Assembly: GCA_020199975.1 (NCBI GenBank)
Contig: JAIVJP010000284.1
Coordinates: 7,749-71,748, forward strand
DNA length: 64,000 nucleotides
Source of the DNA: Acidobacteriota bacterium
GTDB lineage: Bacteria; Acidobacteriota; Blastocatellia; Pyrinomonadales; Pyrinomonadaceae
Reading direction: 5' to 3'
Both the position numbers and the translations under genes were made by a program. Position 1 is the stretch's first letter; every line of letters begins with the position of its first letter. The notes under the pieces are model-generated. The model ran no database searches and had not been told where the DNA came from. It was given only the letters and a program-made list of their open reading frames with translations. Below, in pieces: positions 3,122 to 56,877 of this stretch.

Positions 3122-3378
3122 TGTCAGTAAGCAGTAGGCAGGAGCAGTAGGCAGAACGCAACAAGCAGCAAATGGAAAACTAGATTTTCCATTTACCATT
3201 TACCAATTTTTCATTGTTCATTTGGAGCTGCGGCGTATTGTCGCTTTTTCCGCTGCTTGCAGCAGAAAACGAAGCGACAAGCAATAAGGTTACCTGACAC
3301 TGCAGTCTGGCGTCAGTCTGCCTACTGCCTTCTGCCTACTGCCTACTGCCTTCTGCCTACTGCTTTCTACCTACTGAT
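3122..3378. repeat. paired-heptamer hairpin element (TAGGCAG / CTGCCTA) with additional inner hairpins and CCATTTA tandem units
   Basis: Left arm CAGTAAGCAGTAGGCAGGAGCAGTAGGCAG (3124-3155). The right arm is about 60 nt of CTGCCTA-type units (3317-3376) overlapping the OmpA-gene stop. Inside are the palindrome AAATGGAAAActagATTTTCCATTT (3170-3194) and CCATTTACCATTTACC (3189-3204). Confidence 0.85.
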
Positions 3379-4945
3379 TGGCCGCACTGCGCGTATTCAC
3401 AGGCATGAAAGTGATCTCCGTGCGGCGATTGCGAGCTCTGCCGGCGGTAGTGGTGTTGCTTCCGAGTGGATTGGCCGCGCCCATCCCGTTGGCTTGAAGA
3501 CGCGAAGCATCGACACCGGCCGCCTGAAAGCGCTCAGACAACTCGCGTGCACGCTCCTGCGTGAGCTGTTGCAGGGTGACCTCATCACCCTTGCCATCGG
3601 TGTAAGCTTCAATAACAAACTGGTAGTCGGGATTGCTTGCCAGCAGGGCCGCGAGCGGTTCGAGTTTCGCTGCTGCCGCGGAAACCAGGGTCGTAGCGCG
3701 TGGACCACTCCAAATGGATTCCGGCAATAGAAGTCGAAAGCCCGATGCCGTTTCCTTCACGGTACCAAACCTCGCCAAACTACTTTTCAGACTTGCTTCA
3801 GCCGCGCGGCGTCGCTGCTCACGTTGTTCGGCATCTATGCGTGACTGTTCGGCATGTTTCTCACCCTCGAGGCGCGCCAGGTTGACCTTCGCTGCCTCCC
3901 CTTCCGAACGCACCGTCTGCAACTCGTCGCGCAGGCGGGCTACTTCAATTCTTTGTTCACGCAGTTGTTGGTTGGCCGTTGCTGCGTCACGCTCCGCTAA
4001 CTCGCGCGCTCGCTGCTCGCGATCGAGCGCGCCGCGCAATTGCTCAATTTCCTGTTGTGACGTTTGTGCCGTTCGCTCAGCGGAGCGCAAGGCATCATCA
4101 CGACGTTGCGTATCCTCGCGACGCAAGCGGGCGGCGCGCCGAGCGAATGCGATCTCCTCGGCCCTGGCCCCGGAAGACGTTGCCTTGCGCGCGAGGACAT
4201 CAACCTCCGCGGTGGGCTCATTAAACCTCAAAGCCTTTTCAGCAGCGAGTAGATCTGCTTCGGCTTGTTCCAGTTCCTGCGTTGCATCCTGTTGCGCGCC
4301 GGCAAAACGCGCGAGGTTTACCGCCTGGCGCGCACCGAGAAGTGAAACTGGAATGTCGCGATAATCCGAAGTAGCAATTTCCGGCACGCGCGAATCTCTA
4401 AAATAGTCGCTCGAGTTTCCAATGTATTGGACGCTGACTGTTTCAACCTGGCTATTGCCCGGCCGCTGGGGCGGGATATTTTCCAGTACGACCATGCGAC
4501 TTGGAACTTTCATCAGGAAGTGTGGTTCAGCAGTTATGATTAACGCAAAGGTCTGCAGCGGCGTAGTGACGTCAAGTTTCGAGGCGATAAAGGGACTGCC
4601 TCCTCGCTTGATCTCGCCCAGGTTATCAACATGCCCGTCGGGCGAAACAGCCCACAGAACAAAAGTCGTATAGACGCCGCCCAGTTCATTGGCGCGGGGA
4701 AGATTGTCGATTGCCAACTCAACTCGGGTCCCTCGGCGACCAGCGCGTTTCACTTTTGCTTCGCCTTTTAATCTCGGCAGCAGCGTGGTGCCGCGGAATT
4801 TCACCGTGACACTTTCATCAAGCGGATAAGTGACAGCCACAGTCCGGCGTGCCAAATCAGTTTGCGCAAATATCGCCGCACAACCAAGGGCAGCGCAGAC
4901 CATCAAAGCCAGTAGGTTGGACAGCAGGCGTCGATAAAAGTTCAT
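3371..4945 (-). CDS. OmpA-family protein with long coiled-coil linker
   Basis: 524 aa with a signal peptide and a central Arg/Glu/Ala-rich coiled-coil segment. The C-terminal OmpA-like domain reads [12 protein letters not shown]...NRRTEITF. Confidence 0.85.
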
Positions 4946-5060
4946 AATCTTGTTCCTCGTGCGATTTAGTGCTGAAACTCCTTGATTTCAAACGAAAACG
5001 CTGTTTCTGTTGATGCAACCAGCGCGATCATTGTTGCCGACGGGCAGGAAAAGGGTCAAG

Positions 5061-5228
5061 CTAACGTCCTGAGGAGAGCCGGTGATACCGGGTTTTGCGG
5101 TACGCAATGCACTGAACAACAAAAATAGAGATCGCTGTGAGCAGCAGGATATGAATAAAGCCGCCCTTGTGTAAAAGAAACTTCAGTACAAACCACAGTA
5201 TGAAAAGTATTGCGCTAATCGCCCACAT
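5061..5228 (-). CDS. small membrane protein, lmo0937-like family (55 aa, below ORF-track cutoff)
   Basis: Manual translation of the minus strand gives MWAISAILFILWFVLKFLLHKGGFIHILLLTAISIFVVQCIAYRKTRYHRLSSGR, with TAG at 5061-5063. It has two hydrophobic helices around a KGG turn, typical of this widespread small-protein family. Confidence 0.55.
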   Translation of the reverse strand: MWAISAILFILWFVLKFLLHKGGFIHILLLTAISIFVVQCIAYRKTRYHRLSSGR

Positions 5229-5242
5229 TCCGCCACTACCTT

Positions 5243-5719
5243 TTAAGGGCTGTTTGAAACGCTACGTACACGACCTCGCCGCATCGCTTTGCCGGGAAGC
5301 GCCACCGACAACACTGCACCGCCGGAAACAAAAAAGCGAACCGGCGTTGAAAATTGTCCTGTGGAACGATCAGAAGCTGCAGTGCGCCAGTGATAATAGC
5401 CGGGCGGCAGACCGCTCACGGTATATCGCTCACCATTAACCCGGCCGTCAAAAAATATGCTGCGAAAGTTTTCATCGCTGGCGATTTGCAGCCGATACCA
5501 GGCCACGCCTTTTTGCCTGGTCCATTGGATCCGGGTGGGAAAAGAAATTGAGCGGGTCGCGGTTTGTTGAGCCAATGCCAGCACCGGAAATGTAAGCAAC
5601 ACTGACAAAGCAAACAACAGGGACGGCTTGGGCGTTTGGAACACTGAGCGGTCTTTGGATTGATTTAGTAACACTGAGCCTTGCGCTGCGGGCCGGACTG
5701 GAATGTTAAGGGGCTTCAT
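5243..5719 (-). CDS. hypothetical secreted protein (beta-sandwich/FN3-like guess)
   Basis: 158 aa with signal peptide LLFALSVLLTFPVLALA. Its start overlaps the stop of the upstream response regulator, suggesting co-transcription. Confidence 0.5.
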   Translation of the reverse strand: MKPLNIPVRPAAQGSVLLNQSKDRSVFQTPKPSLLFALSVLLTFPVLALAQQTATRSISFPTRIQWTRQKGVAWYRLQIASDENFRSIFFDGRVNGERYTVSGLPPGYYHWRTAASDRSTGQFSTPVRFFVSGGAVLSVALPGKAMRRGRVRSVSNSP

Positions 5720-18421: not shown

Positions 18422-19405
18422 ATGGCCATAGTAACCATGCGCGAGGCGCTCAATCAGGCGATTCGAGAAGAGATGCAGCGCGACGAAAATGTGTTTTTGA
18501 TGGGCGAAGAAGTTGGCGCCTATCAGGGCGCTTACAAAGTTACTAAGGGCCTGCTCGAAGAATTAGGGCCAAAACGGGTCATCGATAGTCCCATTACAGA
18601 ACTTGGTTTTGCCGGTCTTGGGGTGGGCGCGGCGATGGTGGGTTTGCGGCCAATCATCGAGTTTATGACTTTTAACTTCTCGATATTGGCGACCGACCAG
18701 ATCATCAACTCAGCCGCCAAGATGCTTTACATGTCGGGAGGGCAGTTTAATATTCCCATTGTTTTCCGGGGGCCGGGTGGTTCAGCATTTCAAGTTTCAT
18801 CACAGCATTCACAAGCGCTCGAGTCGTGGTTTGCTTATTTTCCCGGCTTAAAAGTCGTCATGCCGTCAACACCTGCAGATGCTAAGGGTCTGTTGAAATC
18901 ATCTGTTCGCGACAACGACCCGGTCATTTTTATCGAGCAGGAGAGGATGTACGGCAGCAAGGGCGAGGTTTCAGACGATCCTGAGCTCACAATTCCCCTG
19001 GGCGTGGCGGACATCAAACGCGAAGGAAAAGATGTCACGATCGTCGCGCGATCCCTGATGGTGCCTGTCGCCTTAAAGGCGGCAGATTTGCTGGAGAAAG
19101 ACGGCGTCTCATGTGAAGTGATTGACCCGCGAACGATTCGACCGCTGGACATCAAAACGATCATCGAGTCAGTCAAGAAAACCAATCGAGTCGTGGTTGC
19201 CGAAGAGTCGCATCCGTTCTGCGGCGTAGCGGCAGAGATTGCATCGGAAATTATGGAGCGGGCTTTTGATTATCTTGATGCTCCAGTCAAGCGCCTGTCT
19301 GGCGCTGACGTGCCGATGCCTTACGCCAAGAATCTCGAGGACGCCGCGATACCAAACGTCGACCAACTGGTCGCAGCGGTTAAAGAAGTCGCCTATATCG
19401 AGTAA
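18422..19405 (+). CDS. pdhB: pyruvate dehydrogenase E1 component, beta subunit
   Basis: The conserved N-terminus MAIVTMREALNQAIREEM starts at ATG 18422. The ORF-track start at 18272 overlaps the end of pdhA and is an artefactual extension. Confidence 0.9.
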   Translation: MAIVTMREALNQAIREEMQRDENVFLMGEEVGAYQGAYKVTKGLLEELGPKRVIDSPITELGFAGLGVGAAMVGLRPIIEFMTFNFSILATDQIINSAAKMLYMSGGQFNIPIVFRGPGGSAFQVSSQHSQALESWFAYFPGLKVVMPSTPADAKGLLKSSVRDNDPVIFIEQERMYGSKGEVSDDPELTIPLGVADIKREGKDVTIVARSLMVPVALKAADLLEKDGVSCEVIDPRTIRPLDIKTIIESVKKTNRVVVAEESHPFCGVAAEIASEIMERAFDYLDAPVKRLSGADVPMPYAKNLEDAAIPNVDQLVAAVKEVAYIE

Positions 19406-19531
19406 ATCGCGAATCGTAAATCGTAAATAGAAGTCTTATTGAAAAACAGTTTCACTCGTCGAGTGATTTCCATTTACGATTTACCATTTCCCATTTACTT
19501 CTATCTACGATTCACGGTTTACGATTCACGA
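19404..19531. repeat. paired-heptamer hairpin element (AATCGTA / TACGATT arms, with CCATTTA-type units)
   Basis: Left arm GAATCGTAAATCGTAAATAGAAGT; right arm ACTTCTATCTACGATTCACGGTTTACGATTC. An inner TCACTC-gtc-GAGTGA hairpin is present. The element fills the pdhB-pdhC spacer. Confidence 0.8.
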
Positions 19532-19538
19532 GGATTGA

Positions 19539-20870: not shown

Positions 20871-20896
20871 GGCTGTGAGCAGCGCGGACTTAACAG

Positions 20897-20924
20897 GGGA
20901 TCGGGGCAACCCGATCCTTTTTGT
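20897..20924 (+). terminator. rho-independent terminator after pdhC
   Basis: GGGGATCGGGG-caa-CCCGATCC followed by TTTTT. Confidence 0.75.
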
Positions 20925-22135: not shown

Positions 22136-22249
22136 GTTTCAAGTTTCAAGTTCCAAGTTTCAAGTTGTGCAGCGGATTACAATTGACACTCGAAAACCCG
22201 CTACCGAAACTCACAACATGAAACTTGGAACTTGAAACTTGAAACTTAG
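22132..22249. repeat. paired-heptamer hairpin element (TTTCAAG / CTTGAAA), bidirectional terminator candidate
   Basis: 38-nt arms (22132-22169 and 22212-22249) are complementary at 37 of 38 positions. The arms include both convergent stop codons. Confidence 0.9.
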
Positions 22250-24094: not shown

Positions 24095-24179
24095 CTCTGT
24101 GCGTACTTTGTGTTCTTTGTGCCTGTGTGGTGGGCCGCTTCCTCATGGATTCACCACAGAAACACAGAGACGCACAGAG
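24095..24179. repeat. imperfect low-complexity hairpin (TGTG-rich arms)
   Basis: Left arm CTCTGTGCGTACTTTGTGTTCTTTGTGCCTGTGTGGTG; right arm CACCACAGAAACACAGAGACGCACAGAG. Confidence 0.65.
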
Positions 24180-25335: not shown

Positions 25336-25376
25336 ATTCTAAATTCTGAATCCTGACTTCTGAATTCTGACTACTG
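25336..25376. repeat. tandem heptamer-like direct repeats (TTCTGAA-type), no clear inverted partner
   Basis: ATTCTAAATTCTGAATCCTGACTTCTGAATTCTGACTACTG lies immediately upstream of the ferredoxin gene start. Confidence 0.6.
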
Positions 25377-27190: not shown

Positions 27191-27196
27191 CAGACC

Positions 27197-33159: not shown

Positions 33160-33178
33160 CGGTTAGCTCCTTCAAGAA

Positions 33179-33305: not shown

Positions 33306-33307
33306 AT

Positions 33308-35250: not shown

Positions 35251-35400
35251 GCGATTCCCAATCTCCGATTGCCGTCTTTGGCGAAAGACAAGCAGTTTTT
35301 AGAGTCCAACCTTTAGCTTGCCCCTTACGAGCTGAGAGCAAGCTGAAGGTTGGCTCTGAACTACTTTGTTTTCAAACGGCAATCGGAAATTGGCAATCGC
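35251..35400. repeat. composite nested hairpin: TTGCCGA-type outer arms enclosing TTTAG...CTGAAGG hairpin copy 2
   Basis: Outer arms are GCGATTCCCAATCTCCGATTGCCG (35251-35274) and CGGCAATCGGAAATTGGCAATCGC (35378-35400). The inner element is AGAGTCCAACCTTTAGCTTGC...GCAAGCTGAAGGTTGGCTCT (35301-35356). Confidence 0.85.
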
Positions 35401-36377: not shown

Positions 36378-39300
36378 TCACATTCCCGGCGCTTTGGCAG
36401 TCGCGCGCACGCGTCCATTAAACGCAAGTGGAGTGCGTTTTGATCTACGCAATCTACGTGAGGTTTCTCCGCTTCTCCGCCTTAATTTATTTTCTGCCTT
36501 CTCTACGGGCGGCGGTGTTGGCGGCGGCCCGGCCGTAGCCGCGGGCGCCGTCGCTAACAGTCGCCTTTGTTCGTCAGGCGTCAACAGGAACATGTAACGA
36601 ACCAACAGCAGCGCATGGTCATCGTGATATGCGGTGGCGCTGGCCGGCGGATTCGGCAGATTGATTACCCAACGATCTCCCTCTTTTCTAAACAGACCGG
36701 TGGGCATCGCTGTGCCCGGACTGATCTGGGATGGATCCAGCAGCCAACGGAAGGTCCATTCCGGTTTCAAGCGTTCGCCGGCCAAAAGGAAGTTTGGCGC
36801 AATCGCCGTCGCATCGTGGGCTGGATCGCCCGTGATGTGACACTTCAGACACGGAGTGCCGGACGTGAACATCTGTCGCGCCACCAGCTTCTCCTCTTCA
36901 GTTAACGGAGCCATCGGCTCTTTGATGTAAGGTTCCTGCTGGCCCGACATGGCCATGAAGAAACGCACTAGGGTCTGCAACTCGTTAGGCGAGAAATTAA
37001 ACGTCGGCATGCGGAACTTGAGATACGGACGAACACCGTTGCGATCGAGACCGGGCTGCGGCTTCAAGTGTCCACTTGTTTGCGCTGCCGGTTTTGGCGA
37101 GGCGCTGGGCGAAGCGCTCGGCGAAGCAGTGGCTCGAGCAGCATTATCGATAGCCCTGGTTTGTTCCGGAGTTTTCTCTCCACTCAAAGACGGGTCGTGA
37201 AGGAATCTTAGCAGCCAATTGGGATCAACACGCGCGCCTTCACTGGACAATCGCGGCGGCAGCAAATCCTTGCCTTCAGGCGTTTGGTAAAAAGGCAAAT
37301 CCATAACTACTGTTCGCTGGTCTACCTGCACCTGGTGGCAACCCACGCAGTTATATTTCTTTATTACCCACCACCCGTTTTGAATGTCCTGCCGGCGCTG
37401 GTCCTCCGGATTATAGAAGAGAGCCGAGGGCACGTTCGAACCTTCCGAGCCAACGCTGCCGAGCAGAAAAGTTGTTAACGCATTACGCCATTCAGGAGTC
37501 AGGAAAGGTTGCGGCATGCGTAAACGATCTTTGGGATCTTTTTCCTTACCCCGATCGTAGATAGAGGGTTCGGTAATCTTGTGCTCGAAAAATCCCTTAT
37601 GGTTGTACCAGGGTTTTTCTTTCTCTTTCGGATGCAGGCCAAGCGGATCATGTCCCTCTTCTGCTTCCTTGGTAAGCATGGCAAAGTCCAGGCGCTCGAT
37701 CGGCGTTGCACCCTCGACGGTCAACTCTTTGCCGATTCGTTGTTCGTCTTCAAAGCCCTTGATCTCGTGACAACCGGCGCACCCATATTGCTTGATGAGA
37801 CCGAATCCCTTGTCTTTCAAGTCCGCGCGGTCCATGAACGAAGCGTCGGCATACTGCGGCGGCGAGGACAACGAGAACAGGTACGTCGCGATGTCGCGCG
37901 CATCCGTCTCGGACAGGCGGAAGTTTGGCATCACTGTCATGTTCTGCACTTGCAGCTCGGCCCCATCGTTGGGGCAGCGCGAATGCAGCTCAGTATCAAA
38001 CACATATGGCAAGTTGTGCTTGGCGTAGTCGTCCGCCGTTAGATCCCGTTTTTCTTTCGGACAATATGGAGCAAAGCGTTCGCGTGGGTTGTGAATCCAG
38101 CGCACTATGTAATCGAAGTTTGCTTTCTCGCCCACCTTTTGCAGATTCGCGGCAAAACTTCCGCCCGTGTCGTTTCCTTCGTCACCAATCGAGTGACACC
38201 CCAGACAGCCACGCGTCTCGAAGAGTTCTTTGCCGTGAGCGGCATCGCCGCGCTGCTGCTGGGGTAACTTGCCATCAAAACTATCCTGCCAGAGATAGGC
38301 AGCAATCGCCTGGATTTGCTCCTCGCCATCTTTATCGCGCATTGATGGACCATTGCCGCTGGGAGCTGCGAACCTCCAGAAGGTCGGCATCTTGGTGCCG
38401 GGACGAAAACCTTGCGGATCTAAAAGCCACTGCGGAACCCATTCCTTGCGCAGTTTCAGGCGCACGTCCTTCAGGTTTGGCCCAATTTTCTTCTGATCTT
38501 GCATTAGGTACTTAGACTGCAAGTTCAACTGATCGATGCGCGCAGCCAGAATGCTGTTGGTAACTTTCAACGCCTCCGATTCGGCCAGCATCTTTTGCGC
38601 ATCTTCATCGCTGGTTCCCTCAGGCGGATTCTCATCGATGCGAATCCGCTTTTGATTGGCCGTAATCTGATCCTCAAGTTGGCTAATATTTTGCCGCGTA
38701 GTCGCCAGGTTATCCGCCTCGCGGTCGAACCCTTCATAACGATGACAACCCATGCAGCCACGTTGGTAGAAGAGGTCGCGGCCGAGATTCAAGGTGTCGG
38801 CGCCTTGCGTAACCCGATCTTTCGCGTGACATTGCTGGCAGCCGGCCTCGGTGTTTTCTTTCTCAAACATCGGCCACAGCCAATACTTATGCCGCCCGTG
38901 CCCCTTCACGTCACTGGTTGTCGCGCGGCCATTGCCCCAGTGACAACTGGAACACCCAAACCGATCCGGATTATGAATCTGCAGCAGATCTTTCTTGGGA
39001 TGACTAACGAAAGCGCGCGCCAGGCTGTCGGGTTTCTTCCCGGGACCTCCGGGCGCTAAATCTTCCGCACGGATGTCGAGTGGCTCGCGAGCACCAACAT
39101 GACAAACTTCGCAGCGGTCGACGATGTCGAATGCATTGACGCTAATCTGGTGCGGCAGGATCGAATAATCAAACGTGTCCATCTTGCGGATCAGTCCATC
39201 GATCTGACTCGCGCCTAGTCCGGGCATGTGATGTTTCAAAAAGTCGTCCCGCTTCTTCGCCAGCCCGCTGGGCCCTTTCAGGAGTTCTGCCTTTTGACCA

Positions 39301-39920
39301 AGCAGGCGGGCCTTTTCATCGCGCAGGTCGTTGTAAAACTTTTCGAGCTGCTCGTAGTTCATCCGCTGCGTCGCAGTTTGGTTCGAGCCGGCGGAAGCCG
39401 GTAAGTCTACTTCGACTAACTCCGCTCTGATCTCGTTAGCTTGCCGGCGGTACTTATCTTTTTTCGCGGAAGGCGCAGTTTCAATGTTGTAATTTATGAC
39501 GCTAAGCCGACCGCGTTGATTCTGAAATGGATCGGTTGAGGCATCGAGCTTGGTCTGGATTTGGGCGACCTGCTGATCGATCTCTTTGATTTGCGGCGTG
39601 ACGTTTTCGAGCGCAGCTTTGGCTGAATCATCCAGCTTTTGATACTCAGGATCCTCTTTGACTTCTGCTTCTGTTTTGCCCGCCTGGGCCTTGATGCTTT
39701 TCAAATAGCGTGTGTAGCGGCTGACAAACTCCCGCTGGATTCCTTTCCAGGGACGCTGGCCGATTGCTTCGTCATAGAGGGACCAGGCAAGTGAGAACGT
39801 GAGCAACAGCGCGCAGACGAGCATGATGCCGCTCGTCGAGCGACTCACGATCGGATCCCGCCCCGGAACGTCCGCTTCTCTTTTCACCAACGACTCGGTG
39901 GTTTCCGGACCCTCAGCCAC
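36378..39920 (-). CDS. membrane-anchored multihaem cytochrome c with eight CxxCH motifs, coiled-coil segments
   Basis: 1180 aa with an N-terminal TM helix (IMLVCALLLTFSLAWSLY). The eight motifs are CEVCH, CSSCH, CQQCH, CMGCH, CLGCH, CAGCH, CVGCH and CLKCH. It has two heptad-like charged segments, an ASPSASPSASP linker and a basic C-terminal tail. Confidence 0.85.
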   Translation of the reverse strand: MAEGPETTESLVKREADVPGRDPIVSRSTSGIMLVCALLLTFSLAWSLYDEAIGQRPWKGIQREFVSRYTRYLKSIKAQAGKTEAEVKEDPEYQKLDDSAKAALENVTPQIKEIDQQVAQIQTKLDASTDPFQNQRGRLSVINYNIETAPSAKKDKYRRQANEIRAELVEVDLPASAGSNQTATQRMNYEQLEKFYNDLRDEKARLLGQKAELLKGPSGLAKKRDDFLKHHMPGLGASQIDGLIRKMDTFDYSILPHQISVNAFDIVDRCEVCHVGAREPLDIRAEDLAPGGPGKKPDSLARAFVSHPKKDLLQIHNPDRFGCSSCHWGNGRATTSDVKGHGRHKYWLWPMFEKENTEAGCQQCHAKDRVTQGADTLNLGRDLFYQRGCMGCHRYEGFDREADNLATTRQNISQLEDQITANQKRIRIDENPPEGTSDEDAQKMLAESEALKVTNSILAARIDQLNLQSKYLMQDQKKIGPNLKDVRLKLRKEWVPQWLLDPQGFRPGTKMPTFWRFAAPSGNGPSMRDKDGEEQIQAIAAYLWQDSFDGKLPQQQRGDAAHGKELFETRGCLGCHSIGDEGNDTGGSFAANLQKVGEKANFDYIVRWIHNPRERFAPYCPKEKRDLTADDYAKHNLPYVFDTELHSRCPNDGAELQVQNMTVMPNFRLSETDARDIATYLFSLSSPPQYADASFMDRADLKDKGFGLIKQYGCAGCHEIKGFEDEQRIGKELTVEGATPIERLDFAMLTKEAEEGHDPLGLHPKEKEKPWYNHKGFFEHKITEPSIYDRGKEKDPKDRLRMPQPFLTPEWRNALTTFLLGSVGSEGSNVPSALFYNPEDQRRQDIQNGWWVIKKYNCVGCHQVQVDQRTVVMDLPFYQTPEGKDLLPPRLSSEGARVDPNWLLRFLHDPSLSGEKTPEQTRAIDNAARATASPSASPSASPKPAAQTSGHLKPQPGLDRNGVRPYLKFRMPTFNFSPNELQTLVRFFMAMSGQQEPYIKEPMAPLTEEEKLVARQMFTSGTPCLKCHITGDPAHDATAIAPNFLLAGERLKPEWTFRWLLDPSQISPGTAMPTGLFRKEGDRWVINLPNPPASATAYHDDHALLLVRYMFLLTPDEQRRLLATAPAATAGPPPTPPPVEKAENKLRRRSGETSRRLRRSKRTPLAFNGRVRATAKAPGM

Positions 39921-43162: not shown

Positions 43163-44134
43163 TCAGCGGGGACAACGTATGCGAAGCGCGCGCGGAACGA
43201 TTTGAAAAGTCGCGGGCAGAAACCCCGGCAGTTCACCGTCAAGTTCAAGTTGAATACGCTGATCCTTATCGATCGGACTGGCCGTAATTTTAGCGGCCAG
43301 CGCATGTTGAACTTCAGGCATACTCAAATGCGCACCAAAATATAATAGAGGTGCATTAGCGAGTATTCGGCTTAAGCTCAGATCCCCAATACTAACGACG
43401 TCAAACTTGCCGTCGGTCAGCTTTGCATCAGGCGCTATCTTCATCCCGCCGCCGAAATACTTGGCATTCGCAACGCAAAGATTTGCCACCGTCGTCCGCT
43501 GCGCTGATTTGTCGTCAAGCTGAATTAACACGCGTGTAGGTTTCATTCGGGCCGCGCTTTGTAGCATGGCCGAGCCAAATGAAAAGCGGCTCGTTAGCCA
43601 GCGCGGCGCTTTCGCCGGCAGCCACTGAGGTCGCCCGGCTTTTACGCGGGCGATTACGTCTGCACTCATTCCAAACGATGCGACACCAAGAAAATAACGC
43701 GTTTCCTGTTCGACGCTGCCGGTAGTGTAGGAAGCACGGCCCACATCAATGCTACGAGTTTGACCATCCCGCAAAATCACGGCGGCTGCTCCGGCACGGT
43801 TCGGAATATCAATAGTGCGGCGAAAATCGCCTCCGGTGCCGCTGGGTAGAATTCCCAGCTCTGCGTCGCATCCGGAAGCAAGGATCCCATTAGCGACTTC
43901 AGAAATCGTGCCATCCCCGCCGCACGCGATAATTAGTTTCGTTCCCTTGCGCGCCGCGTCGGCCGCTATCTCGATTCCTTCGGCTGGTTTGGTCGTTAAC
44001 GCCGGTTGGAAAGGGCCAAAGTTGGCCCTTAACTCGCTGGCAATCTTCGGCCAAGCATCGGCTGTAGCGCCGCCGGCAGAAGCAGGATTGATGATGACTA
44101 AGGGGAGCGACATTTTAACGCTTAGCGGGGGCAT
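43163..44134 (-). CDS. diacylglycerol/lipid kinase (YegS/BmrU family)
   Basis: 323 aa with the motif IIACGGDGTISEVANG. Confidence 0.85.
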   Translation of the reverse strand: MPPLSVKMSLPLVIINPASAGGATADAWPKIASELRANFGPFQPALTTKPAEGIEIAADAARKGTKLIIACGGDGTISEVANGILASGCDAELGILPSGTGGDFRRTIDIPNRAGAAAVILRDGQTRSIDVGRASYTTGSVEQETRYFLGVASFGMSADVIARVKAGRPQWLPAKAPRWLTSRFSFGSAMLQSAARMKPTRVLIQLDDKSAQRTTVANLCVANAKYFGGGMKIAPDAKLTDGKFDVVSIGDLSLSRILANAPLLYFGAHLSMPEVQHALAAKITASPIDKDQRIQLELDGELPGFLPATFQIVPRALRIRCPR

Positions 44135-44261
44135 GCCCGCCTTACCGACCTGTAGACTCCTTACTAGCTTGATTCATTGCGTCTTGAGAGACTTTCCATC
44201 TCGGGTTAACAAAATTCAACTACTATCAGCTCTAGGTTGGGAAGGCGGGCTTGCCCCGCTC

Positions 44262-45089: not shown

Positions 45090-45200
45090 GAATAGTCCAA
45101 TGTCCAAAGTCGAAAGTCCAAAATCTTTGTCGCGTGACTTCACTTCTACTTCGGAAGATGCTCGCGGCACAGGACTTTGGACTTTGGACATTGGACTATC
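45090..45200. repeat. paired-heptamer hairpin element (AAAGTCC / GGACTTT)
   Basis: Left arm AATAGTCCAATGTCCAAAGTCGAAAGTCCAAA; right arm AGGACTTTGGACTTTGGACATTGGACTATC. In the core, 27 of 28 positions are complementary. It starts 2 nt after the metH stop. Confidence 0.9.
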
Positions 45201-45201: not shown

Positions 45202-48200
45202 TTAGTCGATCGAAAAGTATTTCGCTTCCGGGTGATGAACAATGATGGCGGAAGTGGATTGCTCAGGCTCGAGTTGAAATTCTTCACTTAGTTCTACATC
45301 GATGCGGCCTGGTTCGAGCAGTTCGAAAAGTTTCGCCTGGTCTTCAAGATTGGGACAAGCCGGGTAACCAAAACTAAAACGTGAACCCTGATATTGCTGG
45401 CGGAAAAGCTTGTTTATATCGGCTGCATCGTCGTCGGCAATGCCCAACTCCTCGCGAATGCGCTTGTGCCAAAATTCAGCAAGGGCCTCGGCGCCTTCTA
45501 CGCTTAGCCCATGGAAATAAAGATAGTTGGCGTAGTTGTCGCTTTTGAACAGCTCATGCGCGTACTCACTGGCACGACGCCCCATGGTAACGAGGTGGAA
45601 TGCAACTACATCCATGCGGCCCGATTCTACGGACGCAAAAAAGTCGGCCAGGCAAAGGTGCTTTGACGCAGGCTGGCGCGGAAAAGTGAAACGCAGACGC
45701 TCAATTTTCTGATCGTCCTCGTAAACTATCAGGTCATTACCCGATGATTGCGCGGGAAAATATCCGTAAACAACCTGCGGCAGTAATAGCTGTTCGCGCT
45801 TACTTCTTTCTATGAGCCCTTCATAAATAGGACGCACCGTCTCGCGCACAAGTGATTGATATTCTTCCGCCGGTCTGCGTCCCTGTTTGAACTGCCACTG
45901 CCCTTTAAACAGGGCGGTTTCATTCACGAAGGAAAACACGTCGTCAAGATCGATATTGTCGACCACACGGGAACCGTAAAACGGAGCTTGAGGAATCAGG
46001 ACATCGGTGCGAATCGCGGAGCGCGTCGTGTGCCTCGTATCGCCGTCGCTTATTGCTCCGCGCGGCTTTGCTCTCTTACTGATGCCGAGCTTCGCTTCCT
46101 CTCCGACGCGATCTTCTATGTCTTCAGTCTGCTCGCCCTGGGTGGCGCCCGCTGCCGCTGCCGCCTTCGTAAGATCCGCAGTGATTACTTGTTCGCCGTT
46201 ACCGCCGACGAGCTTATCCATCGTGTGTAATCCGGCAAATGCATCACCGGCATAGTAAAGGCTGCCTTTATAGATAGACTTCAGATCCTCGTCTACGTAG
46301 CGACGGGTCAATGCTGCGCCTCCAAGAATTACCGGCACGGTTATGCCGCGCTCGTTCATGAGATCGAGATTGTCCTTCATGATCAAAGTAGACTTTACCA
46401 GCAACCCACTCATGCCAATCGCGTCCGCCTGGTGTTCCTCCTGCGCCTGGAGAATATTGTCAATGGGCTGCTTGATGCCGAGATTTATTACTTTGTAACC
46501 GTTGTTGGTGAGAATGATGTCGACAAGGTTTTTCCCAATGTCGTGAACGTCGCCTTTGACAGTGGCGAGCACCAAGGTGCCCTTCGCCGTTGCCCCACCC
46601 TTCTTCTCCATAAAAGGTTCCAGAAAACGCACGGCCGCTTTCATCGCTTCCGCTGACTGCAGGACGAACGGTAGCTGCATCTGCCCGCTACCAAAGAGAT
46701 CGCCGACGACTTTCATACCCCCAAGCAGGATATTGTTGATGATATCGAGCGCGGGATATGCTTCCAGCGCCGTGGTGAGTTCTGCTTCCAACCCGATCTT
46801 TTCGCCGTCGATGATGTGATTCTTAAGACGTTCTTCAACAGTCGCACCCTTGGATTCCTTCTTCGCGGCCTTACTCTTCACGTTTTCAAACAATGTCGTG
46901 AACGCGGTCAGCGGATCATAAGTACAAACATCTCCCTCAAACTCGCGCCGGTCGTAGATCAAGTCACGCGCGACTTTCAGCTCCTGTTCACCGATTCGAT
47001 TCAGCGGTTCAATCTTGCTGGCGTTAACTATTGCGGCATCCAGGCCAGCTTCTACTGCGTCGTGGAGAAACACGGAGTTTAATACGACACGAGAAGCCGG
47101 ATTCAATCCAAATGAGATGTTGGAGACGCCGAGAATTGTGAAACAGCCGGTTAATTCCTTTTTAATTCGACGGATTCCTTCGATTGTCTCCAGCGCGTTG
47201 CGGCGGTCCTCTTCAATGCCGGTCGATATCGGAAGTGCTAACGGATCGAAGAAGATGTCACTGGCCGGAAGACCTAATTCACCTGTTGCCTGTTCGTACG
47301 CTCGTTTGGCGATGGCAAATTTCCCATCAGCAGTTCGCGCCATCCCCTCTTCATCGATTGTTCCAATGACAACGCTGGCGCCGTAGCGCTTCGCGAGATC
47401 AATGACTTTCGTGAAACGCGGCACGCCGTCTTCATAATTCGTCGAATTCAGAATGCTCTTACCACCGGCGTGCTGCAGACCGGCTTCCATCTTCTCCCAC
47501 TCGGTGGAGTCAAACATCAGCGGCAGCTTGATATTTGTTACAAGTCGTGAGGCAAGCTGGTGCATATCCTTCTCGCCATTGCGGCCCACGAAGTCGACGT
47601 TCACGTCCAACACGTGTGCGCCTTCGCGCTCCTGCTCTTTTGCCAAAGCAACCAGTCCATCCCAATTTTCGGCGTTGAGCAGGTCGCGCATCTTCTTAGA
47701 GCCGCTGGCGTTTACTCGCTCGCCTACAATTAGAAACGAGGCATCCTGCACATACGGTTGTTGAAAATAGATCGACGAAGCAGCCGGGATAAGTTTTGCG
47801 TCGCGGCTCTTCGGTGAAATGCGCTGCATTGCTTCGACCACTAACTTCAGATGAGCTGGCGTCGTGCCGCAGCAACCACCAACCACGTTCACACCGAAGT
47901 CACTGGCAAAGTGAATGACTTGATTCGTGAAAGTCTCCGGGGTCTCGTCGTAATGCATTTTGCCTTCAACCACAGAAGGCAATCCGGCGTTAGGCAGCAC
48001 CGACACTGGCAGCGGGGCGTTCTCGCACAGGTAGCGAATGCTTTCGGTCATGTGTCGCGGACCGGTCCCACAGTTCATACCGATTACATCGATCGGAAAT
48101 GGAGCCAACGCAGTTAGTGCGGCACCAATCTCGGTCCCATTGAGCATCGTGCCAAACACCTCGATGGTGACCTGCGCGATAACCGGAACGCGCACACGAT

Positions 48201-48741
48201 GCTTCTCAAAGTGCGCAAAGATTGCGCCGAGCGCCGCTTTTGTTTGCAGCAAATCCTGACAGGTCTCGACTATCAGGAGATCTACGCCGCCATCCAGGAG
48301 CCCGCGTACTTGTTCGGCATACGCCGCTCGGAGATCGGCGAACGTGATATGACCGAGCGTCGGAAGCTTGCGGCCTGGGCCCATTGAGCCCGCGACCCAG
48401 CGAGGTTTGTCCTTGGTTGAGTAATCTGCGGCAACACGTTTGCCTAGACGAGCGGCCAGGACGTTCATGTCATACGCCTTATCGGCCATGTCGTATTCAG
48501 CAAAATCTACAGGCGTCCCGTTGAATGAATTGGTCTCGATTACGTCGCAGCCAACGTCGAGAAACGCGACGTGGACGTTTTCCACCGCGTCGGGCCGGGT
48601 GACGAGTAAGTTCTCGTTACAGCCTTCAAACCGTAGCCCGCCAAAATCCTCCAGCGTGAGATTTTGGACCTGCAGGTTGGTGCCCATCGCGCCGTCAAAG
48701 ACGACGATGCGCTCCTTTAATGTGTCGAGAAAATCACTCAT
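45202..48741 (-). CDS. metH: cobalamin-dependent methionine synthase
   Basis: 1179 aa with homocysteine-binding and pterin-binding barrels, a B12-binding domain carrying DVHDIGKN, and a C-terminal reactivation domain. Confidence 0.95.
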   Translation of the reverse strand: MSDFLDTLKERIVVFDGAMGTNLQVQNLTLEDFGGLRFEGCNENLLVTRPDAVENVHVAFLDVGCDVIETNSFNGTPVDFAEYDMADKAYDMNVLAARLGKRVAADYSTKDKPRWVAGSMGPGRKLPTLGHITFADLRAAYAEQVRGLLDGGVDLLIVETCQDLLQTKAALGAIFAHFEKHRVRVPVIAQVTIEVFGTMLNGTEIGAALTALAPFPIDVIGMNCGTGPRHMTESIRYLCENAPLPVSVLPNAGLPSVVEGKMHYDETPETFTNQVIHFASDFGVNVVGGCCGTTPAHLKLVVEAMQRISPKSRDAKLIPAASSIYFQQPYVQDASFLIVGERVNASGSKKMRDLLNAENWDGLVALAKEQEREGAHVLDVNVDFVGRNGEKDMHQLASRLVTNIKLPLMFDSTEWEKMEAGLQHAGGKSILNSTNYEDGVPRFTKVIDLAKRYGASVVIGTIDEEGMARTADGKFAIAKRAYEQATGELGLPASDIFFDPLALPISTGIEEDRRNALETIEGIRRIKKELTGCFTILGVSNISFGLNPASRVVLNSVFLHDAVEAGLDAAIVNASKIEPLNRIGEQELKVARDLIYDRREFEGDVCTYDPLTAFTTLFENVKSKAAKKESKGATVEERLKNHIIDGEKIGLEAELTTALEAYPALDIINNILLGGMKVVGDLFGSGQMQLPFVLQSAEAMKAAVRFLEPFMEKKGGATAKGTLVLATVKGDVHDIGKNLVDIILTNNGYKVINLGIKQPIDNILQAQEEHQADAIGMSGLLVKSTLIMKDNLDLMNERGITVPVILGGAALTRRYVDEDLKSIYKGSLYYAGDAFAGLHTMDKLVGGNGEQVITADLTKAAAAAGATQGEQTEDIEDRVGEEAKLGISKRAKPRGAISDGDTRHTTRSAIRTDVLIPQAPFYGSRVVDNIDLDDVFSFVNETALFKGQWQFKQGRRPAEEYQSLVRETVRPIYEGLIERSKREQLLLPQVVYGYFPAQSSGNDLIVYEDDQKIERLRFTFPRQPASKHLCLADFFASVESGRMDVVAFHLVTMGRRASEYAHELFKSDNYANYLYFHGLSVEGAEALAEFWHKRIREELGIADDDAADINKLFRQQYQGSRFSFGYPACPNLEDQAKLFELLEPGRIDVELSEEFQLEPEQSTSAIIVHHPEAKYFSID

Positions 48742-48860
48742 TTCCGATTGCCGATTTCCAATTGCCGATTTTCCGTTTGCTAGTTTCGAATTTAATCACA
48801 GCCTTTTATGCCCGCCGCCCTTGCCTTTCAATCGGCATTCGGCAATTGGCAATCGGCAAT
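48742..48860. repeat. paired-heptamer hairpin element (TTGCCGA / TCGGCAA) abutting the metH start codon
   Basis: Left arm TTCCGATTGCCGATTTCCAATTGCCGATTTTCCG; right arm TCAATCGGCATTCGGCAATTGGCAATCGGCAAT. Confidence 0.85.
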
Positions 48861-48861
48861 G

Positions 48862-48892
48862 ACAAAAGCCCCGCGCCAAACAACGCGGGGCT
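48862..48892 (-). promoter_or_regulatory. terminator-like hairpin inside the metH leader (attenuator candidate)
   Basis: Minus-sense sequence AGCCCCGCG-ttgtttgg-CGCGGGGCT followed by TTTT, lying between the promoter candidate and the metH start. Confidence 0.4.
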
Positions 48893-49002
48893 TGCCAAAG
48901 CCTTTTCGTCAGTCCTGTTAAGTCAAGACTCGCCGAGCTGTTTAGCCGATTGTTTTACGTGGCCGCAAGTCGCCTTAACTCACCACGTTTGGTCCGGCAG
49001 TC

Positions 49003-55471: not shown

Positions 55472-55502
55472 GACAGGGATTCTTGCCCGTCCGAGCGAAA
55501 TG

Positions 55503-55648
55503 AAGACAGACGCCAAGGTCTGTCTTACTAAAGATTGGTTACAAGCACAGGTGCTTGTAACCATAAGAGCGTAGCCTGGAGGAATTCCTGGCGAGTGTAC
55601 GGTTGTCGGGGCCACGCACTCATTTCCAGCTTCCTCGCAGGCTACGTT
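55503..55648. repeat. three consecutive strong hairpins in the ubiE-permease spacer
   Basis: AAGACAGAC-gccaag-GTCTGTCTT (55503-55526). GGTTACAAGCAC-ag-GTGCTTGTAACC (55537-55562, perfect 12-bp arms). AGCGTAGCCTGGAGGAA...TTCCTCGCAGGCTACGTT (55568-55648). Confidence 0.75.
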
Positions 55649-55780
55649 CTTATTATTAAAGATGCTCGGTTCCTTCGTCGAACTCCGGCAATCACAACTT
55701 TCTCGGCCGGGAATGTCTATCCTAGTCGTATGCTATTATCCTCGCGATTTTGATCCTTCCGTTAATCGAGACACGCCAGA

Positions 55781-56785
55781 GTGCGTTCAGTTTTTAAGTA
55801 TAAAGTTTTCTCGGCGCTGCGGCGTTTCGCAATCTTTCTGCTCGTCGTTTGGACAGTTGTCTCGTTAGTTACGCTACTGATCGAACTGGTGCCAGGTGAT
55901 CCGGCCGTTGCTGTTCTCGGTGAACAAGCGACACCCGAGCAGTTCGAGCAGTTTCGCCAACTGCATGGGCTTGACCGCCCCCCATTCTTCTTTTCCTTTC
56001 CCCGCGACGCACAAGAAAACCGCCACCTTCAATGGCACGGCGCCAACAATCGCTACACCGATTACTGGGTTCGCCTGCTTCATGGTGACATGGGCCGCTC
56101 TTTTCGTACGGATCGTCCCGTCATCGAACTAATACTCGAGCGCTATCCGGCCACTATTCAACTTGCACTATCGGCCTTGTTGATTGCAGTACTCATCGCG
56201 ATTCCGCTGGGCGTAATCGCAGGAAAGAATCGCGGCACATGGATCGACAACCTTGCCTCCATTGTTGCGCTCATTGGGATCAGTCTGCCTGGTTTCGTTA
56301 TTGGGCCAATGTTGGTCTACGTTTTCGCGGTTAAATTTCGCTGGCTGGCGCCGTCGGGTCGTTTCGACTGGACTGATTTCATTTTACCATCGTTCACGCT
56401 GGGCGCCGCGCTGGCAGCGATTCTTACACGCATGGTGCGCTCGTCAGTTATTGAGGAGATGGGCGAAGACTACGTTCGCACCGCTCGCGCAAAAGGGTTA
56501 AGCGAAACGAAGGTTGTTTACAAACATGTCTTGAAAAATGGGTTGATTCCGGTAGTGACGATTCTTGGTTTGCAGCTTGGCGTTTTGCTTGCCGGTGCAA
56601 TCATCACTGAAAAAATATTCGGCTGGCCTGGTTTGGGACTTCTCCTGGTGGAAGACGGAATCGGCAAACGCGACTACCGCGTGGTCCAGGGATGCGTCCT
56701 CGTGATCAGCATCACTTACATAGTAGCCAATATGCTTACCGACATGGTGTATCGGTGGTTGGATCCCAGGATTCGAGTATCTTAG
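55781..56785 (+). CDS. ABC transporter permease, DppB/OppB family
   Basis: 334 aa with a GTG start, N-terminal LIELVPGDP and an EAA-like loop (YVRTARAKGLSE). Confidence 0.85.
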   Translation: MRSVFKYKVFSALRRFAIFLLVVWTVVSLVTLLIELVPGDPAVAVLGEQATPEQFEQFRQLHGLDRPPFFFSFPRDAQENRHLQWHGANNRYTDYWVRLLHGDMGRSFRTDRPVIELILERYPATIQLALSALLIAVLIAIPLGVIAGKNRGTWIDNLASIVALIGISLPGFVIGPMLVYVFAVKFRWLAPSGRFDWTDFILPSFTLGAALAAILTRMVRSSVIEEMGEDYVRTARAKGLSETKVVYKHVLKNGLIPVVTILGLQLGVLLAGAIITEKIFGWPGLGLLLVEDGIGKRDYRVVQGCVLVISITYIVANMLTDMVYRWLDPRIRVS

Positions 56786-56877
56786 CCGCTGGGCTTTGGT
56801 CTTTGGCCTTTGAAACAGCGTGCAGCTGTGCGGAGTACAAAAGGCTAAGACCAAAGCCAAAAGGCCAAAGACCAGCA
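56786..56877. repeat. paired-heptamer hairpin element (GGTCTTT / AAAGACC)
   Basis: Left arm GCTGGGCTTTGGTCTTTGGCCTTTG; right arm CAAAAGGCTAAGACCAAAGCCAAAAGGCCAAAGACCAGC. It lies between the two permease genes. Confidence 0.85.

Follow-up and report, generated by a model that had tools for sequence, protein, structure and literature searches.

Inverted pairs of heptanucleotide arrays occupy intergenic spacers of a Pyrinomonadaceae bacterium (Acidobacteriota)

Introduction

Many bacteria over-represent heptameric simple sequence repeats (SSRs) (PMC4692102), and in some of them the repeats are paired. Hairpins of STRR sequences, whose repeats are usually 7 bp long, are "not unusual in filamentous cyanobacteria"; one lies between hupS and hupL, and proposals for what they do include effects on transcript stability and on translational coupling (PMC2670836). 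One such unit of Nostoc 7120, ttgtcag/ctgacaa, has 44 copies in the genome (PMC2408588). In Xanthomonas campestris and X. axonopodis, arrays of GGGAATC form convergent inverted pairs in 70 and 75 cases (Rehm et al. 2015, PMC4692102), with 186 and 183 arrays in total in the two genomes; the type of array (single or inverted pair) and its position are conserved between species, and its length is variable (PMC4692102). Direct repeats of TAACTGA occur in Beggiatoaceae, some Cyanobacteria and Bacteroidetes (MacGregor 2015, PMC4679880). For the Beggiatoaceae repeats a cold-shock-domain protein has been suggested, and CspB binds as one protein per heptamer (PMC4679880).

We analyzed a stretch of 64,000 nt (the window) from a soil Pyrinomonadaceae bacterium (Acidobacteriota, Blastocatellia) in which a preliminary description had recorded paired heptamer runs and had not recognized them as a described class. 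Heptamer hairpins are on record from filamentous cyanobacteria (PMC2670836) and Xanthomonas (PMC4692102), and the claim of a new repeat class is therefore not supported. We found no literature report of such hairpins in Acidobacteria. Novel aspects are the phylum of the host, the almost exclusive pairing of the arrays, and some properties of the hairpins, namely, loop flipping at orthologous sites, unbiased G.U pairs, and a G>C polarity of the 5' arm.

Results

About one-quarter of the gaps between genes in the window are filled by a tandem run of 7-base units and, after it, the mirror image of that run. Our own scorer found 13 strict period-7 runs versus 0.04 expected from 100 second-order Markov simulations of the window, and periods of 4 to 6 and 8 to 12 gave 0 or 1 run. 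None of the 13 strict runs fell within our own gene list, nor did any of the 18 found at a looser threshold; by that list, 10.9% of the window lies outside genes. This distribution agrees with the earlier view that the elements avoid conserved coding sequence. An inverted-repeat search of the window returned arms of 22 to 42 nt, 75 to 96% complementary and 13 to 191 nt apart, and nearly all the arrays are paired in inverted orientation and form long hairpins (z scores of -3.3 to -12.9 for RNA folding of 10 elements compared to dinucleotide shuffles). The period-7 enrichment, the inverted arms and the folding confirm that the recurrent paired-heptamer feature is real.

Tandem Repeats Finder listed period-7 arrays at all the sites described previously except 24095-24179 and 35251-35400. 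The heptamer outer arms at the latter were recovered by the inverted-repeat search; the former has an irregular 8- to 10-nt period, is similar to the CTTTGTGC/CGCAAAGG octamer arrays of relatives, and was rejected as a heptamer element. Our assignments of the flanking genes agreed with the placement of the elements at operon junctions and between convergent genes, and the earlier names (pdhB/pdhC, the UbiA-family ctaB with the COX2 ctaC, and two dpp-type permeases) were retained. The closest loci are from Pyrinomonadaceae, Acidobacteriota, and the host is indeed not cyanobacterial. The elements are as follows.

3118-3378, no strand assigned: TAGGCAG/CTGCCTA hairpin from the start of a histidine kinase gene (1015-3120, minus strand) to the stop of an OmpA-family gene (3371-4945, minus strand); arms unequal, with about 4 units at 3125-3168 and 8 at 3318-3376; 150-nt center containing a separate ATTTACC array at 3184-3205.
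19401-19535, plus strand: AATCGTA/TACGATT hairpin filling the gap from the pdhB stop to the pdhC Shine-Dalgarno sequence (z, -4.8); the TAA stop is inside the first unit, and the GAGGA preceding the ATG is just beyond the 3' arm.
22128-22253, no strand assigned: TTTCAAG/CTTGAAA hairpin between the stops of an EamA-family gene (plus strand) and an M14 peptidase gene (minus strand) (z, -12.4); arms 95% complementary, both TAA stops within the outer palindrome.
24095-24179, no strand assigned: TGTG-rich inverted repeat of irregular period (z, -3.6).
25336-25376, no strand assigned: unpaired ATTCTGA array of 5 units, listed by Tandem Repeats Finder and missed previously.
26630-26768, minus strand: AAGTGAC/GTCACTT hairpin from the stop of a DUF420 gene (26762-27196, minus strand) to the ATG of the next gene (minus strand) (z, -3.3).
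27197-27378, minus strand: GTGACAA/TTGTCAC hairpin with a 119-nt loop, immediately upstream of the DUF420 gene start.
28027-28106, no strand assigned: TTTCAAG/CTTGAAA hairpin with a 13- to 17-nt loop (z, -4.4), just past the stop of a small plus-strand ORF (27641-28027) that gave no family match; the cytochrome oxidase genes (minus strand) start beyond it, with COX4 at 28587-28934.
33176-33306, minus strand: AATCGTG/A hairpin between ctaB (33308-34219) and ctaC (32314-33159) (z, -5.5).
35251-35400, minus strand: TTGCCGA-type outer arms of 25 nt, 92% complementary, upstream of ctaA (z, -12.9), enclosing a nested palindrome (about 35296-35362) of a different, sequence-conserved family (CAACCTTTAGCTTGC...).
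45090-45200, minus strand: AAAGTCC/GGACTTT hairpin, 96% complementary, between metH (45202-48741, minus strand) and an acyltransferase gene (minus strand) (z, -8.7).
48738-48862, minus strand: ATTGCCG/CGGCAAT hairpin in the metH leader, with the metH ATG in the last unit (z, -4.3), preceded upstream by a SAM-II riboswitch (48921-48996) and a terminator-like stem (about 48866-48893).
56782-56877, plus strand: GGTCTTT/AAAGACC hairpin, 77% complementary, between two dpp/opp-type permease genes (z, -4.9).

In 1.8 Mb of related loci, adjacent arrays of the same unit formed 85 inverted pairs and 2 direct pairs. The hairpins fell into 46 unit classes with a median loop of 39 nt, and across all of these classes the second arm of every hairpin was the reverse complement of the first-arm unit. 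These results uphold the statement that the arms are not independent microsatellites. The lengths of the two arms varied independently (rho = 0.14). The mirroring of off-consensus units, also described previously, was present in four of the six informative window elements and was marginal over 45 informative hairpins (observed minus unit-permuted complementarity, +0.36 nt; Wilcoxon P = 0.056), and any conversion between the arms is therefore not unit perfect.

The units are A+T rich (58%), with G-run units such as AGGGATG and ACCCGTC rare; within them GTGA is enriched (z, 4.4) and TA is depleted (z, -4.2). They form a skewed pool with recurring members (AAACTTG, AATCGTG, AAAACTG and AACTGAC), some of which are common to Nostoc. 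The 5' arm had more G than C in 68 of 81 hairpins and in 35 of 45 unit classes (P = 2.5 × 10-4). For 27 intercistronic hairpins of known transcription direction, we counted 104 G.U pairs in the sense and 113 in the antisense orientation (P = 0.68), with mean folding energies of -46.7 and -47.8 kcal/mol, respectively. None of the hairpins carried a T tail, although the genome has canonical terminators (e.g., 20895-20920); the elements are not U-tailed intrinsic terminators. We saw no recognizable promoter in the loops (15 to 160 nt).

Where relatives had a hairpin at the same gene junction, its unit was conserved down to a protein identity of about 73%. The related locus L085 (87% amino acid identity) had the window's units, in other copy numbers, at five orthologous sites. 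It also retained the partner arm at the site orthologous to 25336-25376, and the window array is thus a solo arm. The loop at 26630-26768 was colinear with that of L085, and the unit at 28027-28106 was identical at the orthologous site in L001. At 27197-27378, relatives had a GTGATGA unit (L002, L003 and L061) or a sequence-conserved palindrome (L001). Of the relatives with at least 73% identity, 10 of 16 carried the GTTTCAA hairpin that follows the peptidase stop; none of the 55 more distant ones did. In this hairpin, the 22-kb window loop matched those of L085 (39 of 48 nt), L087 and L001 only when inverted with respect to the flanking genes; the L002 and L061 loops were mutually inverted, and those of L085, L086, L087 and L001 were mutually colinear. 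By this comparison, the loop of an orthologous hairpin has flipped between relatives at least twice. L090 and L092 had an A>G change in the 5' units with a matching T>C change in the 3' units.

Hairpins extended from the stop codon to just ahead of the Shine-Dalgarno sequence. The convergent spacer held some long hairpin, of any type, in 10 of 10 genome-collection relatives examined. The pdhB-pdhC spacer was short and without a hairpin in many relatives, and any RNA role there is therefore dispensable. Other sequence-conserved, REP-like palindromes occupied the same spacers and were even nested inside heptamer hairpins.

Discussion

Each element consists of two arrays of one 7-nt unit in opposite orientations around a unique loop. 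The elements lie only in intergenic DNA, are inherited vertically at a given gene junction, and change by gain or loss of whole units, and the loop can flip. We favor, at a probability of roughly 0.6, the interpretation that they are heptanucleotide microsatellite palindromes that arise, and stay complementary, through DNA-level processes and whose stem-loops in transcripts are tolerated and perhaps also used. Replication slippage would lengthen or shorten the arrays 7 nt at a time, and exchange between the arms would keep them complementary, through recombination or gene conversion between inverted repeats or through template switching within the palindrome; the same exchange would invert the loop. 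Both slippage and arm-to-arm conversion are inferred from comparison of genomes. Exchange at the DNA level is favored by the loop flips, by the matching changes in the two arms of L090 and L092, and by the lack of a sense-strand advantage; vertical inheritance and slippage are favored by the differing copy numbers in L085, the clade-restricted GTTTCAA hairpin, the independent arm lengths and the lost arm. Expansion would be halted where selected sequence begins: at one end a stop codon, and at the other a Shine-Dalgarno sequence, a start codon or another stop codon. The element folds back in the transcript and brings its flanks together, and it is therefore tolerated inside operons. Where cistrons meet and at the 3' ends of mRNAs, it probably has an added role as a generic stem-loop that protects against exonucleases or modulates coupling. 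The span from stop codon to Shine-Dalgarno sequence and the hairpin found in every convergent spacer examined fit such tolerance and use. The model does not account for the 7-nt step size or for the G>C polarity of the 5' arm. The conservation of units at a site at 73 to 87% amino acid identity, where neutral 7-mers might drift, hints at sequence-level constraint, as does the recurrence of a few units across loci and even phyla, which a purely mutational model does not predict.

The elements could instead be RNA structures selected as mRNA 3'-end stabilizers, U-less terminators, RNase processing sites or translational-coupling devices, in which case transcript-level selection would preserve complementarity and the heptamer period would be incidental. 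Placement where transcripts run (operon junctions, 3' ends and the riboswitch leader), the exact span from stop codon to Shine-Dalgarno sequence, the clade-wide conservation of hairpin and unit, and the persistence of some hairpin in the convergent spacer of relatives even when the sequence type is replaced are all consistent with such selection, and the G-rich 5' and C-rich 3' arms could reflect cotranscriptional folding or avoidance of Rho loading. However, neither G.U pairs nor folding energy showed a sense/antisense asymmetry, arm lengths were uncorrelated, T tails were absent, many relatives lacked a hairpin at the same junction, and neither the loop flips nor the period of 7 is explained, so we consider this reading rather unlikely. 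A role as multivalent sites for a protein that contacts single- or double-stranded nucleic acid every 7 nt, such as a cold-shock-domain or nucleoid protein, would fit the units conserved at a site, their skewed pool partly common to Nostoc, the GTGA and TA biases, and the one-per-heptamer binding of CspB (PMC4679880). We find this improbable, given that 46 dissimilar unit classes argue against a sequence-specific reader, that arms paired with each other would be less available for single-strand binding, and that the window offers no protein candidate.

Intergenic, palindromic elements at many loci, sharing and nesting within spacers with sequence-conserved palindromes, might also be nonautonomous mobile elements of a MITE, REP or REPIN type, dispersed by a transposase whose gene lies elsewhere in the genome. 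Locus-unique loops, the 46 unit classes and inheritance in place led us to reject a sequence-specific mobile element; moreover, neighboring spacers shared units no more often than random pairs (3 of 28 versus 9.5%), and no transposase, RAYT, reverse transcriptase or invertase was present among the window proteins searched (most of them, with a few small ORFs excluded). Mobility is thus highly improbable as the origin of the hairpins. Repeats and palindromes can in principle be misassembled; we found no actual support for this, the arms (20 to 40 nt) are below sequencing-read length, and dozens of independent assemblies, the two closed chromosomes OY969111.1 and OY970389.1 among them, show the same architecture at orthologous sites. 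We therefore give an assembly or sequencing artifact almost no credence.

Comparison with known systems

The two loop orientations among relatives, and changes that occur in both arms together, resemble inverted-repeat recombination and template switching (quasipalindrome correction and invertible segments). Unlike invertible DNA segments, the elements here have no invertase found with them and no recognizable promoter in their loops, and their orientations are known from comparison between relatives, not from switching within a population.

REP/BIME and REPIN elements of Proteobacteria are likewise imperfect palindromes of 3' untranslated regions and operon junctions that fold into stem-loops, and similar roles (mRNA stabilization, termination and supercoiling) have been proposed for them. 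REPs share a common conserved sequence of 20 to 40 nt and are linked to the RAYT transposase. The hairpins here, in contrast, have no common sequence, are made of microsatellite units, and evolve in place. The TAACTGA repeats are similar in their intergenic arrays of 2 to 6 heptamers adjoining start codons and their patchy phyletic distribution, and related units (CAACTGA, AAACTGA and CCACTGA) occur here; they differ as forward direct arrays upstream of genes, with 1 inverted among 170 sets (PMC4679880), whereas the arrays here are paired.

STRR hairpins share the 7-nt tandem units, the many dispersed intergenic loci, the several units per genome, and the occurrence within operons, and the ttgtcag unit of Nostoc 7120 is that of the L001 and L035 pdhB-pdhC hairpins. 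Nostoc plasmid alpha has one inverted CAATTCG/TGCGAAT pair of the same anatomy between co-directional genes. The consensus units of the classical STRR1-3 differ from the common units here. The systems also differ in host phylum, Acidobacteriota here, and in density, which is about 10-fold lower in the sampled Nostoc plasmid (5 strict runs in 200 kb). Pairing is near obligatory here (85:2), whereas Nostoc has "a few paired repeats" for the one unit type surveyed (PMC4692102). The Xanthomonas GGGAATC arrays are also intergenic heptamer SSRs, mostly two nearby arrays in convergent orientation, and in both systems type and position are conserved and length varies; that system has essentially one G-rich unit with G-quadruplex potential, in contrast to the 46 A+T-rich classes here. 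On the reading that we favor, the elements are the acidobacterial counterpart of the cyanobacterial STRR hairpins and the inverted GGGAATC pairs of Xanthomonas.

Heptamer arrays in the window

We scored the window for tandem repeats with a lag-match scorer and found 13 strict period-7 runs, compared with 0 to 1 at periods 4 to 6 and 8 to 12 and with 0.04 expected by chance from 100 second-order Markov simulations of the window. These counts confirm the heptamer arrays noted in a preliminary description of this DNA, and Tandem Repeats Finder recovered period-7 arrays at all of the sites listed there save 24095-24179 and 35251-35400. All 13 strict runs lie outside the gene list, in intergenic DNA that makes up 10.9% of the window, in agreement with the reported confinement of the elements to noncoding sequence. 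Strict period-7 runs were present in 11 of the 40 window spacers of at least 30 nt. The inverted arms of the window elements are 22 to 42 nt long, 75 to 96% complementary, and 13 to 191 nt apart, and RNA folds of 10 elements gave z scores of -3.3 to -12.9 relative to dinucleotide shuffles. The window has eight unit types, and the relatives (1.8 Mb) have 46 classes. When genome and metagenome loci were pooled (1.83 Mb), we counted 384 period-7 runs; adjacent runs of the same unit were inverted in 85 cases versus direct in 2, with a median loop of 39 nt.

An unpaired ATTCTGA array at 25336-25376 had been missing from the earlier list of sites. The 150-nt center of the 3.1-kb hairpin holds a separate ATTTACC array (3184-3205), which is followed at 3226-3290 by more local complementarity (GCTGCGGCG…GCTGCTTGCAGCAG…). 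The gene names used earlier were correct for pdhB/pdhC, for ctaB (UbiA family)/ctaC (COX2), and for the two dpp-type permeases. The following genes were also found.

Genes of the window
28979-29659, COX3-family gene, cytochrome oxidase cluster
29759-30457, COX3-family gene adjacent to the preceding one, cytochrome oxidase cluster
36378-39920, c-type-cytochrome-containing protein, 1180 amino acids

Inheritance and turnover at orthologous sites

The best relatives of the pdhC protein, at no more than 87% amino acid identity, come from Pyrinomonadaceae/Blastocatellia metagenome-assembled genomes (MAGs) of the Acidobacteriota, with Gemmatimonadota and Bacteroidota lower down, and the host is therefore not cyanobacterial, as had been proposed from gene content. 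The gene order of the pdh region is kept in most of the relative loci. We sought strain-level relatives that would show copy number variation directly, and the genome and metagenome collections yielded none, the closest having only 87% protein identity. Many Blastocatellia loci contain strict period-7 runs, which are rare among outgroup loci (any in 3). The closed chromosomes OY969111.1 and OY970389.1 also have period-7 runs, and the arrays are therefore not an assembly artifact.

At the pdhB-pdhC junction (19.4 kb in the window), about half of the relatives have a heptamer hairpin extending from the stop codon to just short of the Shine-Dalgarno sequence, with units that vary by lineage (AATCGTG, GTCAGTT, GTTTTCA, GTGGTCA, GTGATAG, ATTTTGG, CTTTGTT, and GTCAGAA). 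The remaining relatives have either a 10- to 60-nt spacer without a hairpin or another palindrome. The pdhB-pdhC spacers of a sister clade (L009-L011, L015, L018, and L021) carry no heptamer hairpins and hold short, unpaired 8- to 9-nt direct repeats, CACAGATT[G], that reach the pdhC ATG.

In the convergent spacer downstream of the M14 peptidase gene (22 kb), a GTTTCAA hairpin is shared by the window and the related loci L001, L002, and L061, and it is present in L005 as outer arms. Among metagenome relatives, 10 of the 16 whose protein identity is 73% or higher have this hairpin, and all 55 of the more distant ones lack it; clade members missing it have a different long palindrome in its place. 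At five orthologous sites, the closest relative, L085, has the window's units in other copy numbers, and it retains both arms at the 25.3-kb site, where the window has a solo arm only. Unit and site are shared among the window, L001, L061, L085-L088, and others, with 3 to 10 units per arm. These comparisons of orthologous sites show inheritance in place, gain and loss of units, loss of an arm, and occasional replacement.

Other repeats and palindromes in the same spacers

In some lineages, octamer arrays (CGCAAAGG/CCTTTGCG), likewise in inverted pairs, or 9-nt repeats occur in place of heptamers. The 8-nt arrays make up a second class of microsatellite hairpin, in which one unit (the same octamers, or CTTTGTGC) is common to several genomes. 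We also observed a palindrome family of conserved sequence (…GTTCAGAGTACAACCTTTAGGTTGC – loop – GCAAGCTAAAGCTTGTACTCTGAAC…) in the same types of spacer, at times replacing a heptamer hairpin and at times nesting in the loop of one. Other REP-like palindromes include GGGGCAAGCCCGCCTTCCCAACCT… and one in L090 tagged with GTAG…CTAC.

Hairpins and palindromes other than heptamer hairpins in the window and related loci
L018, nine runs, 8-nt-unit hairpins
L031, 7428-7526 and 21176-21237, 8-nt-unit hairpins
L053, 20979-21041, 8-nt-unit hairpin
L060, 13474-13540, 8-nt-unit hairpin
L030, 12761-12784, 8-nt-unit hairpin
Window, 35296-35362, conserved palindrome family
L001 and L004, spacers, conserved palindrome family
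L005, L014, and L047, pdhB-pdhC, conserved palindrome family
L089, conserved palindrome family
Window, 44128-44257, REP-like palindrome
L004, upstream of the DUF420 gene, REP-like palindrome
L090, L092, L096, and L099, nested REP-like palindromes

Several of the REP-like palindromes sit in the center of heptamer hairpins, so that the loops serve other palindromic elements as landing sites. Two of the sites first described need amending. The TGTG-rich element at 24095-24179 is not heptameric; it resembles the octamer arrays of relatives and looks like a degenerate member of the 8-nt-unit class. The 35.3-kb element is a heptamer hairpin as described; nested in the loop is a second palindrome, which is of another kind and is conserved in sequence.

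The leader of metH (TIGR02082, 1395 bits) contains, in this acidobacterial genome, a SAM-II (SAM_alpha, RF00521) riboswitch aptamer at 48921-48996 on the minus strand (42.1 bits; gathering score, 36). Downstream of the aptamer are a terminator-like stem (48866-48893; GCCCCGCG...CGCGGGGC, then TTTTGTC) and then a 125-nt heptamer hairpin (48738-48862) with the metH ATG in its last unit; the hairpin thus lies between the riboswitch and the start codon.

Comparison with known classes of element

A terminator scan called no main heptamer stem as an intrinsic (Rho-independent) terminator, and its only calls inside an element fell within the 19.4-kb hairpin, on a 6-bp stem in its loop. A canonical terminator after pdhC (20895-20920; an 11-bp stem with six G-C pairs and a T tract) indicates that the organism uses ordinary terminators besides the heptamer hairpins. 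The hairpins had no match to an Rfam RNA family at the gathering score, SAM_alpha being the sole match in the window. We rejected REP/REPIN elements because no palindrome is conserved across copies, the loops are unique, and the units are locus specific. We rejected MITEs because a shared core is lacking and because, where two elements are built on one unit (19.4 with 33.2 kb and 22.1 with 28.0 kb), their loops are unrelated. Sharing of units between adjacent spacers was not enriched (3 of 28, versus a 9.5% background). Our protein search covered most of those encoded in the window. They are housekeeping proteins, with no transposase, reverse transcriptase, or invertase among them, and no RAYT (Y1 transposase), a gene for which the preliminary description had advised searching.

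What keeps the arms complementary

Matching arms could result from selection for pairing in the transcript or from DNA-level exchange between one arm and the other. We used folding of the sense versus antisense strand, together with counts of G.U pairs, as a test for RNA-level selection, since selection on the transcript only ought to favor the sense strand. For 27 intercistronic hairpins with a known direction of transcription, there was no asymmetry either in G.U pairs (104 sense versus 113 antisense; P = 0.68) or in mean folding energy (-46.7 versus -47.8 kcal/mol), and this parity speaks against transcript-only selection. The claim that the arms are kept complementary rather than varying independently is supported by the excess of inverted over direct pairs; the mirrored positions of off-consensus units, offered earlier in its support, were only marginal in a unit permutation test (P = 0.056). 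Arm lengths were uncorrelated in the pooled loci (rho, 0.14).

The loops gave a further indication. The 48-nt loop of the 22-kb hairpin matches its L085 counterpart (81% identity) only in the opposite gene-relative orientation, and it is likewise opposite to the loops of L087 and L001. At this site, the loops of L085, L086, L087, and L001 are mutually colinear and those of L002 and L061 run in opposite directions, which implies at least two independent inversions. We also considered an invertible DNA switch (inverton), in which the segment between inverted repeats would occur in both orientations; here the two loop orientations were seen between related genomes. Compensatory changes between arms, which had been proposed as a check in relatives, were seen in L090 and L092, where A>G in the 5′ units is paired with T>C in the 3′ units. 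The parity of the strands, the loop flips, the matched substitution, and the arm length and mirroring tests together point to DNA-level exchange between the arms. From these sequence comparisons we infer that such exchange, by recombination or template switching in the palindrome, is probably the main reason that the arms match, over selection for RNA pairing.

Unit composition and G/C polarity

The units have an A+T content of 58%, versus about 46% for the window. They are depleted in TA (z = -4.2), enriched in TGA (z = 3.4) and GTGA (z = 4.4), and otherwise diverse. Unlike TGA, stop triplets of any kind were not enriched in the units, and their excess in 5′ over 3′ arms (19 versus 9) was not significant (P = 0.09). 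In 18 classes the 5′ arm units contain an ATG or GTG triplet, and in 3 classes the 3′ arm units do. From all 85 hairpins in the window and related loci, we found a polarity in which G exceeds C in the 5′ arm, whichever strand is read (68 of 81 hairpins; by unit class, 35 of 45, P = 2.5 × 10−4). We rejected a transcription-linked bias, suggested by G>C 5′ arms in 36 of 40 post-stop hairpins, because the property is the same on both strands of the palindrome. A palindrome reads alike inward from either side, and G/C polarity therefore cannot show which strand matters. One idea is that a C-rich, G-poor arm leaving the polymerase first would invite Rho.

Discussion

We consider these elements to be heptanucleotide microsatellite palindromes subject to slippage and arm exchange, tolerated and probably used as stem-loops, a reading to which we give a probability of roughly 0.6, its identification of the elements being firmer than its mechanism. 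The arrays would be made by slippage in 7-nt steps, complementarity would be maintained by arm-to-arm exchange in the DNA, and the elements would be tolerated as fold-back stem-loops in transcripts and probably used as generic stem-loops. Slippage with arm exchange does not account for the step of 7 nt, for the conservation of units, or for the G/C polarity. A more ambitious account, which we think unlikely, would have self-maintaining palindromic microsatellites whose recombining arms both keep complementarity and flip the loop; the 7-nt step would have a cause shared by Cyanobacteria, Xanthomonas, Beggiatoaceae, and Acidobacteriota, polarity and units would reflect a function in the transcript, and loop orientation might be a heritable switch.

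The elements occupy about a quarter of intergenic spacers and so bear on gene start calling, terminator prediction, and assembly for these abundant soil bacteria. The Pyrinomonadaceae offer a clean comparative system, in which the repeats are almost always paired and lie at conserved junctions of the pdh, cox/cta, dpp, and metH housekeeping operons. With hundreds of soil genomes of conserved gene order, birth, turnover, arm exchange, loop inversion, and polarity can be counted.

Bacterial heptameric repeats have been on record since 1990, to our knowledge with no established function or origin (the reason for a 7-nt step). Mazel et al. reportedly described STRR1-3 in 1990 with the units CCCCAGT, TTGGTCA, and CAACAGT. 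These are not among the common units here, the only near matches being GTGGTCA (L030) and TTGTCAG (L001), and the latter is identical to a repeat of Nostoc 7120. In 200 kb of Nostoc plasmid alpha, used as a cyanobacterial comparison, we found five strict runs and one inverted CAATTCG pair.

The observation in the preliminary description held up and its interpretation was partly supported; its view that the class is undescribed was not, given the 7-bp STRR hairpins of filamentous cyanobacteria and the inverted heptamer pairs of Xanthomonas. Hairpins made by STRR, usually 7-bp repeats, are “not unusual in filamentous cyanobacteria,” as in the hupS-hupL gap, and proposed roles are transcript stability or translational coupling (PMC2670836). 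The Nostoc repeats ttgtcagttgtcag, ttgttagttgttag, and ccactgactactgac (PMC2408588) are units of the L001 pdhB-pdhC hairpin. Heptameric simple sequence repeats are overrepresented in many bacteria, and the GGGAATC arrays of Xanthomonas form convergent inverted pairs 70 to 75 times per genome, with type and position conserved from one species to another (PMC4692102); the elements described here are similarly convergent arrays of the same unit, with site and type kept across relatives and length variable. Direct arrays of TAACTGA occur in Beggiatoaceae, Cyanobacteria, and Bacteroidetes (PMC4679880). Our literature search found no mention of such repeats in Acidobacteria, and the host here is a member of the Pyrinomonadaceae/Blastocatellia, whereas STRR hosts are filamentous or heterocystous cyanobacteria. 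The architecture is already known; what is distinctive in this lineage is that pairing is nearly obligatory, that units are numerous, and that the elements fit tightly between stop and start in core operons.
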